Origin: a virus
Taxonomy: Duplodnaviria > Heunggongvirae > Uroviricota > Caudoviricetes
Reading direction: 5' to 3' (one strand)
DNA length: 15,276 bases
Virus record (IMG/VR): IMGVR_UViG_2687453449_000002
The notes under the pieces were generated by a model that saw only the letters and a list, made by a program, of their open reading frames with translations, did not search any database and was not told the origin of the DNA. This document shows positions 7,822 through 12,657 of the stretch, in pieces (the first letter of the stretch is position 1; every line of letters starts with the position of its first letter). The position numbers were made by a program, and so were the translations under genes.

Positions 7822-8097
7822 CGTGCGGGTATTACTTCGACCTGTTCTGGTATGGCTTACAGCCGTGTGTCGACCTTCTCCGGGGATTATCTCCGCGTAA
7901 CTGACAACAAGGGGAAAACGCACGATGTGCTGACCGGAAGTGATGACGGTCGCCACAGCAACACGTCTCTGGCGTGGGGGGCTGGCGTGCAGTTTAACCC
8001 GACCGAATCCGTGGCCATTGACCTTGCTTATGAAGGTTCCGGCAGTGGTGACTGGCGCACTGACGGTTTCATCGTGGGTGTCGGTTATAAATTCTGA
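7822..8097 (+). pseudogene. lom: lom (Ail/Lom outer-membrane protein) 3' fragment lacking the N-terminal half
   Basis: Encodes ...SLAWGAGVQFNPTESVAIDLAYEGSGSGDWRTDGFIVGVGYKF, matching the C-terminal beta-strands of Lom/Ail/PagC; no signal peptide or N-terminal barrel portion upstream. Confidence 0.7.
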
Positions 8098-8123: not shown

Positions 8124-8150
8124 AGCCCGCCGGTTCAGGCGGGCTTTTTT
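8124..8150 (+). terminator. Rho-independent terminator between the lom remnant and stf
   Basis: Stem agcccgcc / ggcgggct with a 6-nt loop, followed by tttttt. Confidence 0.8.
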
Positions 8151-8161
8151 GTGGAGTGGAT

Positions 8162-10540
8162 ATGGCAGCAGTAAAAATCTCAGGTGTGCTGAAAGATGGT
8201 GCGGGAAAACCAATACAGAACTGCACTATTCAACTGAAGGCAAAGCGTAACAGCACCACGGTACTGGTGAACACGGTAGCCTCTGAAAATCCGGATGAAG
8301 CCGGGCGTTACAGCATGGATGTCGAGTATGGCCAGTACAGCGTCACCCTGCTGGTTGAAGGTTTTCCGCCTTCACATGCCGGAACCATTACCGTCTATGA
8401 AGGTTCCAGACCTGGTACGCTGAATGATTTTCTCGGTGCCATGACGGAAGATGATGTCATGCCGGAGGCATTGCGTCGTTTTGAGGCAATGGTGGAAGAA
8501 GCAGCACGCAACGCTGAAGCCGCCTCTCAGAGCGCAGCGGCAGCAAAGAAATCAGAAACAGCAGCGGCATCATCGAAGAACGCGGCGAAAACCTCAGAAA
8601 CGCATGCAGCTAACAGCGCACAGGCGGCAGCGGCCTCGCAGACTGCATCGGCAAACTCCGCGACAGCAGCTAAAAAATCAGAAAACAACGCGAAAAATAG
8701 CGAGACAGCAGCAAAGACGAGCGAAACCAACGCAAAGTCCAGCCAGGCGGCAGCGAAAACAAGCGAAACGAATGCCAAAACCAGTGAAACTGCGGCGAAA
8801 AGCAGTCAGGCTGCAGCAGCCGAAAGCGAGAGTGCGGCAGCCGGTTCTGCGACTTCAGCAGCTGGATCAGCAACTGCTGCAGCTAACAGCCAGAAAGCAG
8901 CGAAGACGAGCGAAACTAACGCAAAGTCCAGCCAGACGGCAGCGAAGACCAGCGAAACGAATGCCAAAGCCAGCGAAACTGCGGCGAAAAACAGTCAGGA
9001 TGCAGCGGCCCAAAGCGAGAGTGCCGCAGCTGGTTCTGCAAGTGCGGCGGCTTCTTCTGCCACTGCATCAGCCAACAGTCAAAAAGCTGCAAAAACCAGT
9101 GAAACCAACGCAAAGGCGAGCGAGACTGCGGCGGCTAACTCGGCGAAAGCATCCGCTGCAAGCCAGACGGCTGCAAAAGCAAGTGAAGACGCAGCCAGAG
9201 AGTATGCAAGCCAGGCTGCGGAGCCGTATAAACAAGTTTTGCAGCCGCTTCCCGATGTGTGGATACCGTTTAACGATTCACTGGATATGCTTGCTGGCTT
9301 TTCGCCTGGTTATAAGCAAATAACTGTAGGTGATGATGTTATTAAAATGCCATCCGATAAGGTTGTTAGCTTCAAACGCGCATCAGGTGCAACATACATT
9401 AATAAATCAGGAGTATTAACCGTTGCTGAAGTTGACGAACCGCGATTTGAACGAGAAGGTTTGCTGATTGAAGGACAAAGAACCAACTATCATCTTAATT
9501 CACTTACGCCATCTAAGTGGGGAGCTACAACAAGTGTAACTATAACAGAAAGTGGTGTTGATGAGTTTGGCTTTACTTATGGGCGGTTTCAAATAAAGGA
9601 CGAAAAAATTGGGACAAATACGACAATGAATATCGCTGCGGTTTCAGGAGGAAGAGGTGTCGATGTTACTGGAACTGAAAAGTATGTTACAACATCATGT
9701 CGTGTAAAAAGCGATAGTGCTAATATACAATGTCGTATAAGATTTGAAAGATATGACGGGTCCGCATATTTTTATCTGGCAGATGCATATCTTAATATAA
9801 CAGATATGTCCATTAGGAAAACGGGAGGAGGGGCTGCAAGAATAACCGCCCGAGCGGAGAAAGAATCTAATGGATGGATTTATTTCGAGGTTACATATCA
9901 ATCTGAAGCTATTGATAATATGGTTGGCTCTCAGATCCAAATTGCTCCACCTGTTTCACCTGGAACTTATTTGGGCGGGGAATATTTGGATGTTACGACA
10001 CCACAATTTGAAGGCGGCTCATGCGCATCATCTTTTATCATTTCCGATACAGTTGCATCAACGCGAGCAAGCGATATTGTTACATTGCCTTGTAAAAATA
10101 ACATGGCCAGCAAACCTTTAACCTGCATGGTTGAAGTGAATAAAAATTGGTCTATAGCACCAAATTCCGCGCCTAGAATTTATGATATAACAGGATTTAA
10201 AACAAAAGACGACGCTTTTGTTTTTGCATTCAGAAATACAGCAGGTAGTGTAGGAACTCCATATGTTCAATTTGGTAATCCAATATCATTTCCACCTGGA
10301 AATTACCCAAGAAAGATTATCGCTGTATATAGAATAAAAAGCGATGGCAAGTTTCAGGCTGGCTGCAATGGGGTTTTATCAACACCAGCATCAACAACGT
10401 GGAAGAGTGTTAGTGGTGCTACAGGTATAAGGATTGGAGGCCAGACTACAGCCGGCTTACGTCATTTATTTGGTTATATCAGGAATTTTAGAATATGGCA
10501 TAAAGAATTAACCGATGCGCAAATGGGAGAGATAATATAA
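8162..10540 (+). CDS. Side tail fibre protein (Stf), mosaic: lambda-Stf-like N-terminal domain, Ala/Ser/Thr repeat shaft, divergent AT-rich C-terminal receptor-binding region (792 aa from ATG 8162)
   Basis: N-terminus MAAVKISGVLKDGAGKPIQNCTIQLKAKRNSTTVLVNTVASENPDEAGRYSMDVEYGQYSV... matches the remembered lambda Stf N-terminus; GGAG Shine-Dalgarno before ATG 8162 (the track ORF starts at GTG 8156); C-terminal end ...FGYIRNFRIWHKELTDAQMGEII resembles a LamG/ConA-like lectin domain. Confidence 0.9.
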   Translation: MAAVKISGVLKDGAGKPIQNCTIQLKAKRNSTTVLVNTVASENPDEAGRYSMDVEYGQYSVTLLVEGFPPSHAGTITVYEGSRPGTLNDFLGAMTEDDVMPEALRRFEAMVEEAARNAEAASQSAAAAKKSETAAASSKNAAKTSETHAANSAQAAAASQTASANSATAAKKSENNAKNSETAAKTSETNAKSSQAAAKTSETNAKTSETAAKSSQAAAAESESAAAGSATSAAGSATAAANSQKAAKTSETNAKSSQTAAKTSETNAKASETAAKNSQDAAAQSESAAAGSASAAASSATASANSQKAAKTSETNAKASETAAANSAKASAASQTAAKASEDAAREYASQAAEPYKQVLQPLPDVWIPFNDSLDMLAGFSPGYKQITVGDDVIKMPSDKVVSFKRASGATYINKSGVLTVAEVDEPRFEREGLLIEGQRTNYHLNSLTPSKWGATTSVTITESGVDEFGFTYGRFQIKDEKIGTNTTMNIAAVSGGRGVDVTGTEKYVTTSCRVKSDSANIQCRIRFERYDGSAYFYLADAYLNITDMSIRKTGGGAARITARAEKESNGWIYFEVTYQSEAIDNMVGSQIQIAPPVSPGTYLGGEYLDVTTPQFEGGSCASSFIISDTVASTRASDIVTLPCKNNMASKPLTCMVEVNKNWSIAPNSAPRIYDITGFKTKDDAFVFAFRNTAGSVGTPYVQFGNPISFPPGNYPRKIIAVYRIKSDGKFQAGCNGVLSTPASTTWKSVSGATGIRIGGQTTAGLRHLFGYIRNFRIWHKELTDAQMGEII
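8700..9200 (+). repeat. About 2.5 imperfect tandem copies of a ~189-bp (63-codon) unit within the stf shaft region
   Basis: Repeat starts near 8707, 8897 and 9083; encodes AAKTSETNAKSSQ...AAAGSA...ANSQK units; also creates spurious long ORFs in other frames. Confidence 0.8.
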
Positions 10541-10821
10541 TGCGAGATTTAATTATCAAATTCACAGACAAGGCCGACTTTTCGGCCTTTATGAAGAGTG
10601 CTGGCTATTATGATGACGAGTCGATGCAGGATGATATTCTTATTGACGTGATAGGTAACGTGTACAAAGAAACCGGAGAACTTACTGAAGATGGCGAGCC
10701 GGTATGTGTTAAGGAAGACGGATATTTTGTAAACGTGCGCATCATTAATGATGCAAAAAAATCGTCAATATTCGATAAATACGCGGTTGTTGTTGAGCAT
10801 CAACTTCGTGGCTGGATGTGA
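10540..10821 (+). CDS. Hypothetical acidic 93-aa protein downstream of stf (possible tail fibre accessory protein)
   Basis: ATG overlaps the stf stop (TAATG); AT-rich like the stf 3' region, suggesting co-acquisition; no family recognised. Confidence 0.5.
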   Translation: MRDLIIKFTDKADFSAFMKSAGYYDDESMQDDILIDVIGNVYKETGELTEDGEPVCVKEDGYFVNVRIINDAKKSSIFDKYAVVVEHQLRGWM

Positions 10822-10830
10822 GGCAGGAAA

Positions 10831-11535
10831 ATGGCTACATCGACAGTAATTCCAGGAGATATCACCAAGCTAAAGGGGGATGTCAGTAAAGCTAAGGAAG
10901 ATATTTCATCAATTAGCAGAAAAGTATCAACGCTTCAGACTGAGATGACCAGTGCAAAGCAGGATATCAGCTCCAGATACACAAAAACTGAAGTTGATAA
11001 TAAGCTGAAAAACAAAGTGGAAGTGAACGATCTGGAAAGTGGTCGTTATGGCGGAGATTTTTATCCACTGACAGGTCGTGAAGCGTTTTATTTATGGAAT
11101 TTGGCCACGACTACAGCGGCGGCAAACCTTTATCTTAATCCTGACCCTGCAATTTCGTCTGTGCTGCGGTCAACATCGTCTATCCGCTATAAACATTCAG
11201 TAGAGACAATAGATTCAGAGCACGCCGATCTCATTTTCAGGATGCGCCCTGTGTGGTACAGGTCGCAATGCGAAAATGACAGGCGTGACTGGGGATTCTA
11301 CGGATTGATTGCCGAGGAAGTAGGAGAAATTGCTCCTCAGTTTGTACACTGGCGACCAGCTAACGAAGATGATGCTCCTGAAGCTATTTCCAGCAATGGC
11401 CTTGTTGCCGAAGGTGTAATGTACGAACGTCTGGTTGTTCCACTGATTCACCATATCCAGAAACTGACTGAAAGAGTTGATGAACTTGAGTCAGAATTAA
11501 AGTTGTTATTAACTTCCCGAAGCGATATTAGATAA
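10831..11535 (+). CDS. 234-aa protein with a C-terminal peptidase-S74-like intramolecular chaperone domain and an N-terminal coiled-coil-like segment
   Basis: C-terminal half ...SSIRYKHSVETIDSEHADLIFRMRPVWY...GFYGLIAEEVGEIAPQFV...LVAEGVMYERLVVPLIHHIQKLTERVDELESELK fits the remembered S74 pattern (Ser ... Lys dyad, GxIAQEV-like motif, terminal helix); GAGG Shine-Dalgarno 7 nt upstream. Confidence 0.6.
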   Translation: MATSTVIPGDITKLKGDVSKAKEDISSISRKVSTLQTEMTSAKQDISSRYTKTEVDNKLKNKVEVNDLESGRYGGDFYPLTGREAFYLWNLATTTAAANLYLNPDPAISSVLRSTSSIRYKHSVETIDSEHADLIFRMRPVWYRSQCENDRRDWGFYGLIAEEVGEIAPQFVHWRPANEDDAPEAISSNGLVAEGVMYERLVVPLIHHIQKLTERVDELESELKLLLTSRSDIR

Positions 11536-11545
11536 AGGAGGAGTA

Positions 11546-11839
11546 ATGGATATAACACCTTTTCTTCATGCGCTTTGTGCTGTGGCTGCGCAGACACTGG
11601 TTGGTCTTTTTACCGGAAACTGGGCTTATGGGGCGATAGCTGGTTGTACGTTCTTCATTGCGCGTGAACACACCCAGGCAGAATATCGCTGGATTGAAAT
11701 GTTCGGGCATGGCAAGCGGATTAACATGCCGTGGTGGGGCGGTTTTGATCCGCGTGTTTGGGATGTGGCAAGCCTGATGGATTTTGCTGTGCCGGTGGTG
11801 GCGTGTCTGCTGATCTGGCTGTTGGTTAATCGTGGGTGA
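11546..11839 (+). CDS. Hypothetical 97-aa hydrophobic protein, probably membrane-associated
   Basis: Strong AAGGAGG Shine-Dalgarno immediately upstream; two hydrophobic stretches (ALCAVAAQTLVGLF and FAVPVVACLLIWLLV). Confidence 0.6.
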   Translation: MDITPFLHALCAVAAQTLVGLFTGNWAYGAIAGCTFFIAREHTQAEYRWIEMFGHGKRINMPWWGGFDPRVWDVASLMDFAVPVVACLLIWLLVNRG

Positions 11840-11849
11840 AAAAAGGTGA

Positions 11850-11969
11850 GCTGTATATGCAACGGAGGAAGAAACCCCGTTGCTGGAAGCCAGGAAAAAG
11901 TATCGGGTGTTGCTGAACCGTGTTGATACGTCAACTGCACAGGATATTGAATGGCCAGCACTGCCGTAG
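11850..11969 (+). pseudogene. tfa: 3' remnant (last ~39 codons) of a tail fibre assembly gene (tfa)
   Basis: Frame encodes [39 protein letters not shown]-stop, matching the conserved C-terminus of Tfa/Mu U-type assembly proteins; no start codon or N-terminal region; sits right before the pin 3' end. Confidence 0.7.
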
Positions 11970-12066: not shown

Positions 12067-12657
12067 TTATATGTCAGGTGTCTGAAGTTTTGCTTTGGCT
12101 CTTAAAATGGTTTGCCGCGAGGTTTTGAATTCCCGGGCAATGGCACTTATACTTACACCTGACTTAATCCGTTCGAATACCACCTGTTTCTGTTCTTCAT
12201 TTAACACAGGTGGTCGACCAAAACGTTTCCCTGCGCCCCGGGCTCTTACTATCCCGGAATGAGTGCGTTCAAGTAAAAGGTCTCGTTCAAATTCAGCGAC
12301 TGCTGAAATTACTTGCATCATCATTTTTCCTGTTGGACTGGTCAGGTCAATGCCCCCCAATGCTAAGCAATGCACTCTGATACCTGTTTCGGTCAGTTGT
12401 TCCACTGTTTTCCTGATATCCATTGCATTACAACCAAGGCGATCCAATTTTGTCACAATCAATTGATCACCACATTTCAGGCGAGCAAGCAACCGGTTAA
12501 AACCAGGACGCTCACTGGTTGCTGCTGAGCCGCTAATGTGTTCTTCGATTATTTGCTGAGGTTTGATTTTAAAACCTGCACTTTCGATTTCCCGGCGTTG
12601 ATTTTCGGTGGTCTGATCCAGCGTTGATATCCGACAGTAAGCAAAAATTCGAGACAT
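12067..12657 (-). CDS. pinQ: Serine recombinase, Pin-family DNA invertase (196 aa)
   Basis: [20 protein letters not shown]... with the catalytic Ser in YCRISTLDQ, a resolvase/invertase catalytic core and a C-terminal HTH ([17 protein letters not shown]); convergent with stf/tfa, as in Qin and Rac. Confidence 0.9.

Follow-up and report, generated by a model that had tools for sequence, protein, structure and literature searches.

A short S74-terminated protein encoded in a cryptic lambdoid prophage is probably the minimal distal subunit of a modular side tail fibre

The stretch of DNA analysed here (the window; 15,276 nucleotides of the IMG/VR virus record IMGVR_UViG_2687453449_000002) carries, downstream of its side tail fibre gene stf, an open reading frame of 234 codons at positions 10831-11535 of the plus strand. 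We consider that the product is probably, at odds of roughly two in three, the minimal distal or third-slot subunit of a modular side or lateral tail fibre. We favour this reading because the position of the gene and the N-terminal motif of its product match those of the distal fibre Gp24 of phage IrisVonRoten, and because residues 44-233 are found, in cis, at the end of long lambda-type Stf proteins. Sequence comparison places the 234-aa ORF third in a conserved cassette, after the genes for a Stf protein with a GTA-spike/LamG-type C-terminus and for a 93-aa protein; its own product is S74-terminated. That this product represents a novel type of free-standing chaperone is improbable. Among the options raised in the first-pass annotation of this DNA, that of a short fibre fits the cassette position, the shared motif and the fusion of the same module to long Stf proteins.

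The ORF runs from ATG to TAA on the plus strand, has its own AGGAAA ribosome binding site upstream, and belongs to a fibre operon with close gene spacing and no internal terminator. Its RefSeq match is WP_000235975.1, a 'tail fiber domain-containing protein' of E. coli B and C genomes. Among the IMG/VR loci compared, 39 contain the 234-aa ORF with identical boundaries at this position. The boundaries recur in homologues with 92-95% identity from three cultured lambdoid phages (IdasGreatGrand, PhiR49_1 and PhiR55_1) and in those of about 45 Drexlerviridae genomes, which are 56-60% identical. The ORF is under purifying selection, its N-terminal 115 residues included: in a set of 41 sequences that contained the window and comprised 22 distinct nucleotide alleles, dN/dS was 0.18 for the whole ORF, with 0.21 in residues 1-115 and 0.14 in the S74 domain. 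All these observations, together with the presence immediately upstream of an unrelated conserved protein that contains no fibre sequence, speak against the idea that the ORF is an artefact or pseudogene left by a longer fibre gene broken by frameshift, sequencing error or prophage decay. That idea has in its favour that the host prophage is heavily decayed, with deletions, fragments of tfa and lom and an IS3 in sister strains, and that long fibres ending in the same terminal module exist; we nevertheless regard it as very improbable. Since the ORF is conserved and its dN/dS low, a split gene or a sequencing error is rejected for the family. The separate short gene downstream of stf described in the first-pass annotation is thus real, and the error-split longer fibre gene that it had kept in mind is excluded by the recurring boundaries and the low dN/dS.

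The S74 assignment is genuine: residues 116-234 (11176-11532, plus strand) make up a Peptidase_S74 intramolecular chaperone (IMC) domain that includes a long C-terminal helix. The Pfam model Peptidase_S74 (PF13884) matched residues 116-172 over model positions 1-57 of 58, with a score of 27.5 bits (E 3.9e-6) against a gathering cutoff of 22 bits; Ser116 aligns to position 1 of the model, and the match takes in GLIAEEVGEIAPQFV (residues 158-172). The predicted dyad, Ser116 and Lys121, lies in the SSIRYK motif (residues 116-121; 11176-11193, plus strand), and both residues were invariant in three alignments of 22, 32 and 29 homologues, with identities down to about 22%. Ser-x4-Lys is the dyad of the endosialidase and T5 pb1 chaperone domains. 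When the PDB was searched by sequence, the top match was 8hqz_d, the C-terminus of an L-shaped tail fibre. An AlphaFold2 monomer model built from 29 sequences had pLDDT values of 75-95 across residues 121-230 and placed a helix at residues 198-233. Foldseek comparison of the model with the PDB gave the ICA domain of MyRF as best match (7dc3, E 1.3e-5, target-normalised TM 0.56-0.59), followed by the IMC crystal structures 3gud and 3gw6. The profile match above threshold, the IMC-like fold of the model, the intact dyad and the terminal helix bear out the S74-like domain that the first-pass annotation had proposed. The domain shares its Pfam family, its Ser-Lys dyad, its predicted fold, its C-terminal position and its long terminal helix with those of endoNF (3gw6), the GA-1 neck appendage (3gud), T5 pb1 and DT57C LtfA (8hqz) and MyRF (7dc3). 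In these proteins, however, it ends a large fibre, a spike or a transcription factor, whereas the cargo of the 234-aa ORF amounts to only 115 residues. As predicted from the sequence, autocleavage would occur N-terminal of Ser116 and yield products of 12.6 kDa and 13.9 kDa.

The 115 residues ahead of the IMC had been described as coiled-coil-like, a description that holds for about 50 of them; in the AlphaFold2 model the other 55 or so are non-helical. Three segments can be distinguished. A conserved N-terminal motif, MATSTVIPGDITKLK (residues 1-15; 10831-10875, plus strand), is common to all third-slot proteins sampled and is a putative docking anchor. It is followed by a coiled-coil stalk (residues 11-60; 10861-11010, plus strand), for which the model gives helices at residues 11-47 and 52-60. 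Hydrophobic a/d positions at 11, 14, 18, 21, 25, 28, 32, 35, 39, 42 and 46 follow a perfect 3-4 spacing, that is, five perfect heptads from I11 to I46. The last segment is a pre-cleavage tip of about 55 residues (61-115; 11011-11175, plus strand) that is non-helical and of low confidence in the monomer model (residues 62-114). Located between the anchor and the IMC, the tip has no Pfam domain match; its homologue in long fibres is the final segment before the IMC, and the frame TTTxxANxYxxPxxxxxxVxRSTS that it carries stands directly ahead of the IMC there too. A mature part of 115 residues with such a tip is small for a receptor-binding domain.

The cassette begins after a terminator-like hairpin (8124-8145, plus strand) that lies between the lom fragment and stf, where the fibre operon starts; in phage 21 a terminator is annotated at the corresponding place ahead of stf. 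The stf gene (8156-10540, plus strand) encodes a proximal side tail fibre of 794 aa when read from the GTG at 8156, the RefSeq start being the ATG at 8162. Pfam and NCBIfam searches showed a lambda-type N-terminal attachment domain (phage_tail_N, 223 bits), Ala/Ser-rich repeats and a C-terminal GTA_spike_fiber (51.7 bits) plus LamG/galectin-like region (Laminin_G_3). The nearest relative of the C-terminal 414 aa is IrisVonRoten Gp22, with 75.5% identity; the protein is also homologous to phage 21 Stf over the C-terminal region, the identity across the whole proteins being 42%. A PDB sequence search with the Stf C-terminus returned nothing meaningful. The second gene, orf93 (10540-10821, plus strand; phrog_1361), encodes 93 aa and always comes directly after this type of Stf, its ATG overlapping the stf stop codon (TAATG). 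By tblastn it was detected in 186 phage records, compared with 218 for the Stf C-terminus, and it is present even at loci where no S74 gene comes next. Its product is possibly an adaptor or an assembly factor for Stf. Relatives found by protein search were all more than 80% identical among the matches listed; the profile gave nothing meaningful against the PDB, and a structure model based on 18 close homologues reached a pLDDT of 47, too poor for a fold search.

The 234-aa ORF sits directly after this orf93 homologue, and the same synteny was seen in loci of lambdoid phages, Drexlerviridae (T1-like), Demerecviridae (T5-like) and Queuovirinae. Every third-slot protein sampled opens with a motif of about 15 residues, M[AV]TxTxIPxDIxxLK, and has an S74 signature at its end; their lengths lie between 221 and 586 aa. 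The alleles compared with the window ORF (234 aa, lambdoid prophage, S74 by Pfam) were those of KarlJaspers (221 aa, Drexlerviridae), an alternative E. coli prophage (346 aa), the Queuovirinae JenP1 (351 aa) and KurtStettler (510 aa), and the T5-like IrisVonRoten (Gp24, 574 aa) and SIA3lw (ORF44, 580 aa). All six carry the Ser-x4-Lys signature; S74 was assigned by Pfam as well in the 346- and 574-aa alleles, and by this signature in the other four. The N-terminus of the window ORF fits the motif of these six alleles. Between phage families the codons of the motif differ synonymously, and therefore its conservation acts at the protein level. When the window was aligned with the locus of the 346-aa allele, DNA homology ended at nt 10874, in codon 15, and resumed exactly at orf97 (nt 11545), the hallmark of a cassette that can be exchanged downstream of a constant attachment motif. 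The gene is thus not the stand-alone ORF that it had been taken for, since its N-terminal motif is common to the third-slot fibre proteins of a three-gene cassette that crosses phage families.

Two large third-slot proteins have been described in T5-like phages. Gp24 of IrisVonRoten (Bas32; 574 aa) was modelled with AlphaFold-Multimer as a T-shaped distal fibre that has a C-terminal IMC and is attached to the proximal fibre Gp22 (Humolli et al. 2025, PMC11990801), and ORF44 of SIA3lw (580 aa) was detected by mass spectrometry in purified virions (PMC12752171). The N-terminal 74 residues of ORF44 are identical to those of Gp24. In both phages the cassette order is that of the window, with the Gp22 identity to Stf noted above and 39% identity for the 93-aa protein; the start of Gp24, MVTKTVIPTDITKLK, is near-identical in motif to that of the window ORF, and both kinds of protein end in an S74 domain with a Ser-x4-Lys dyad. 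The differences lie in the phages themselves, T5-like in one case and a lambdoid prophage in the other, in the S74 domains, which are only about 27% identical, and in the mature part: that of Gp24 and ORF44 comprises 463-470 residues and includes two receptor-binding domains, one Gp12-like and one T5-like, compared with the 115 residues of the window ORF. Closer counterparts are the Drexlerviridae proteins of KarlJaspers (bas06_0035), PeterMerian and SECphi27 (221-231 aa). These are true orthologues whose identity extends over 93-97% of the length, and they share the architecture of the 234-aa protein; their genes likewise come behind those for the lateral tail fibre and the orf93 product. They belong, however, to virulent T1-like phages and are followed by other genes, without orf97 or a tfa remnant.

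A second line of evidence came from the relatives of the protein at large. When 1.84 billion representative sequences were searched exhaustively with HMMER, 3505 relatives came up (E <= 0.001), in which the match is always at the C-terminal end while protein lengths vary widely; among the 141 matches listed, the median length was 495 aa and 20 were under 300 aa. Residues 44-233 were 57-60% identical to the C-termini of long fibres, the closest among the matches listed. Two such fibres, P0185 (735 aa) and P0187 (958 aa), start with phage_tail_N and are therefore lambda-type Stf proteins with the tip and IMC module fused in cis; in other lambdoid prophages, Stf itself thus ends in this module. 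Like the 234-aa protein they have a YTKTEV motif, the pre-cleavage frame and the IMC; the module is fused to Stf in these fibres, whereas in the window it is encoded by a separate gene and carries a docking motif and a coiled coil in place of a fibre shaft.

The first-pass annotation had also suggested that the ORF replaces the canonical Tfa and that its product may be a chaperone acting in trans. According to this alternative, the protein would dock on nascent Stf, its S74 domain would trimerise Stf in place of the lost Tfa, and the N-terminal 115 residues would serve as a tether. The gene does lie downstream of stf, in the usual place of tfa, the mature part of its product is very short, and a Pfam search of Stf itself revealed neither an S74 domain nor any other chaperone that could be recognised. 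Moreover, homologues in Drexlerviridae and Seuratvirus are labelled 'putative lateral tail fiber chaperone' in the BASEL annotation. For Drexlerviridae this label is a guess, and our analysis favours a structural distal subunit; a search of the literature on trans-acting S74 chaperones, on Drexlerviridae fibre structures and proteomics and on lambdoid Stf with IMC found no experiment on the short protein. Against a trans-acting chaperone speaks that this Stf type occurs without an S74 partner, which makes such a role for Stf unlikely. The complete genome of phage 21 has the order Stf, orf93 homologue and orf97, with no S74 gene found by tblastn and no tfa, and this layout is common to about 48 IMG/VR loci. 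In addition, the S74 domain of every other third-slot allele ends a sizeable fibre body that it would fold in cis, long Stf proteins carry the tip and IMC module as part of the same chain, and residues 1-115, which would be only a tether, are under purifying selection. IMCs are known to fold cargo of the triple beta-helix or fibre type, as in endoNF and T5 pb1, and the globular LamG/galectin-type C-terminus of Stf is unlike such cargo.

The replacement of Tfa fares no better. What is left of the lambda-type tail fibre assembly gene is its 3' end, 36 codons and the stop (11859-11969, plus strand), a RefSeq pseudogene labelled N-terminally truncated tail fiber assembly protein; as had been recognised from the sequence, it is a true tfa fragment, with positions 11859-11966 matching Caudo_TAP positions 95-130 of 131 at 52.4 bits. 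The junction between orf97 and this remnant is common to the window, phage 21 and IdasGreatGrand, and therefore the loss of tfa is old in the module; it is no event of this prophage and nothing for which the 234-aa ORF compensates. Phage 21 and the loci of its type lack both Tfa and the S74 gene. Proteins of the Tfa or gpU type (Caudo_TAP) resemble the 234-aa protein in their gene position directly downstream of a fibre gene, with no relationship to it in sequence or fold. A replacement by homology is ruled out: the ORF had no Caudo_TAP (PF02413) match at E <= 1, and the remnant is the only Caudo_TAP sequence in the window.

Another alternative is that the protein sits on the tip of Stf through its anchor as a structural cap or placeholder that binds no receptor, the galectin-like domain of Stf being the sole adhesin or being transiently masked. 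The tip is tiny and fairly conserved between the lambdoid and the Drexlerviridae proteins (62% identity), unlike hypervariable receptor-binding domains, and where prophage alleles of the locus differ, the variable stretch falls within the part that encodes the C-terminal region of Stf (window 9802-10433). The capping of receptor-binding proteins by chaperones is moreover already a concept in the literature cited in PMC11990801. Compared with long fibres, however, the 45 residues before the cleavage site (71-115) are more variable than the IMC, with 30-38% and 63-70% identity respectively; and phage 21-type loci leave the docking site empty, so a cap is not required. We regard a cap as unlikely, although it heads the alternatives; the trans-acting chaperone follows it, and the gene fragment comes last by far. 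A combination of the first two, which we hold to be more doubtful than either, would have the protein act as a docking, self-removing intermolecular chaperone or cap: the anchor would bind the C-terminal end of the LamG-tipped Stf, the IMC would nucleate or mask the Stf trimer in trans, and self-cleavage would leave a coiled-coil stub. If true, this would be the first demonstrated case of an S74 domain working on a fibre that comes from a separate gene.

If the protein is, as we favour, a minimal distal subunit, its assembly could proceed as follows. Three copies would associate via their C-terminal S74 domains (residues 116-234), and the IMC trimer would register and fold, in cis, the small tip (residues ~61-115) and the five-heptad coiled coil (residues 11-47/60). 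Ser116, activated by Lys121, would then cut the chain just N-terminal of itself, freeing the 13.9-kDa chaperone while the 12.6-kDa mature chain would stay as a trimer. By analogy with the modelled attachment of Gp24 to Gp22, the N-terminal ~15 residues would dock this putative trimer on the proximal fibre formed by Stf, at its distal end; the orf93 product may take part. The assembled fibre would bear the galectin/LamG-like domain of Stf plus a small extra tip, which may bind a receptor.

The DNA of the window is that of a cryptic, Qin-like lambdoid prophage from the E. coli B/C lineage. Between positions 10400 and 12000 it shows 100% identity with BL21(DE3), REL606 and E. coli C, and 80% or more of this region is present in about 719 of the 5426 complete genomes of E. 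coli. RefSeq annotates, in order, stf, a hypothetical protein, WP_000235975.1, a further hypothetical protein, the truncated tail fiber assembly protein, pinQ, ydfK and ydfJ. The second of these hypothetical proteins is encoded by orf97 (11546-11839, plus strand; phrog_1443), a small membrane protein gene that is the last of the cassette in its lambdoid versions; its DNA is 92-96% identical to L018 and phage 21, and the phage 21 homologue CPT_21_24 is annotated with two TMDs. Beyond the tfa remnant lies pinQ (12067-12657, minus strand), a serine invertase with Pfam Resolvase and HTH_7 matches that now stands without an invertible stf/tfa segment. A search for Pin-type inverted repeats flanking the module gave no convincing pair; a single weak 21-nt pair was all that was found, and there is therefore no sign of an invertible segment. 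Compared with E. coli C, the window has a further deletion of about 5 kb, which joins position 7852 to the middle of lom. Head, tail-shaft and other virion genes besides the fibre cassette are absent from the prophage, so that a function of the 234-aa ORF in this genome is not to be assumed. Most likely, the gene is stranded, unexpressed cargo in this window, which infecting lambdoid phages could gain by recombination.

The family to which the 234-aa ORF belongs is already in the databases and represents no new biological principle. Its short members are, however, often mislabelled as 'chaperone of endosialidase', 'putative lateral tail fiber chaperone' or 'hypothetical protein', and the annotation corrected here affects about 720 complete E. 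coli genomes and dozens of T1-like phages. The analysis also defines a portable three-gene side-fibre cassette that is used by four phage groups, and the short allele may serve as a minimal substrate for studies of S74 autoprocessing. The exchange point is precise, at codon ~15 of the third gene, and therefore distal pieces would be swappable with the 15-residue anchor kept, for the engineering of lambda, T1 or T5-type fibres. The main practical value of these results is the corrected annotation together with this defined swap point for fibre engineering.

Within stf, the shaft of the encoded fibre is formed by Ala/Ser-rich direct repeats (8696-9133, plus strand) with a period of 189 bp, and alignment of 8885-9133 with 8696-8944 showed 83% identity. 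Repeat number varies among Stf alleles, the protein being 686 aa long in phage 21 and 794 aa in the window. When the window was compared with the E. coli prophage locus that carries the 346-aa allele of the third cassette gene, the most divergent stretch of all mapped to 9802-10433 on the plus strand, inside stf. There, only 9977-10187 could be aligned (67.8% identity) and no alignment between the two loci was detectable over the rest of the stretch, whereas its flanks were 88-91% identical. This peak of divergence is consistent with the galectin/LamG-like region of Stf determining receptor binding independently.

The next gene, orf93 (10540-10821, plus strand; phrog_1361), is translationally coupled to stf through a TAATG overlap. 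In four phage groups orf93 tracked the GTA-spike/LamG-type Stf C-terminus, irrespective of whether the third gene was present. Searches with orf93 against Pfam, NCBIfam and PDB gave no match, and its AF2 model failed (pLDDT 47). Possibly it is orf93 that acts as the true assembly factor or adaptor for Stf proteins of the GTA-spike/LamG type.

The intact pinQ invertase gene (12067-12657, minus strand) appears to be orphaned, its would-be target, an invertible stf/tfa segment, having been replaced by the fibre cassette. Only one weak 21-nt pair of inverted repeats was found (9445-9465 / 12272-12292). Upstream of stf, a deletion joint (7849-7852 and 7852-8097) connects the 3′ part of lom to the sequence following the rem-adjacent hypothetical gene. 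The ∼5 kb missing from the window are kept in E. coli C, where they comprise DUF968, the Q antiterminator, a lipocalin gene, IS3, a J remnant and the 5′ end of lom. Neither a late-gene activator nor virion genes remain in the window prophage.

A 97-aa membrane protein with two predicted TM segments is encoded by orf97 (11546-11839, plus strand; phrog_1443). This gene always closes the fibre cassette of lambdoid loci, that of phage 21 among them (as CPT_21_24), but is missing from the cassettes of Drexlerviridae, T5-like and Queuovirinae phages. The orf97 gene could be a moron, for example a superinfection-exclusion factor.

S74 chaperone domains usually form the extreme C-terminus of a protein. 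Because the 510-aa third-slot protein of phage KurtStettler (bas22_0024, L143:5030-6562) carries ∼200 additional residues C-terminal to this domain, made up of a stretch rich in Gly and Trp (GGAIGGLIGSWIGNGWGGNGGWGGRG), a region rich in Gln and a Cys-rich C-terminus, its putative released 'chaperone' fragment may have a second function.
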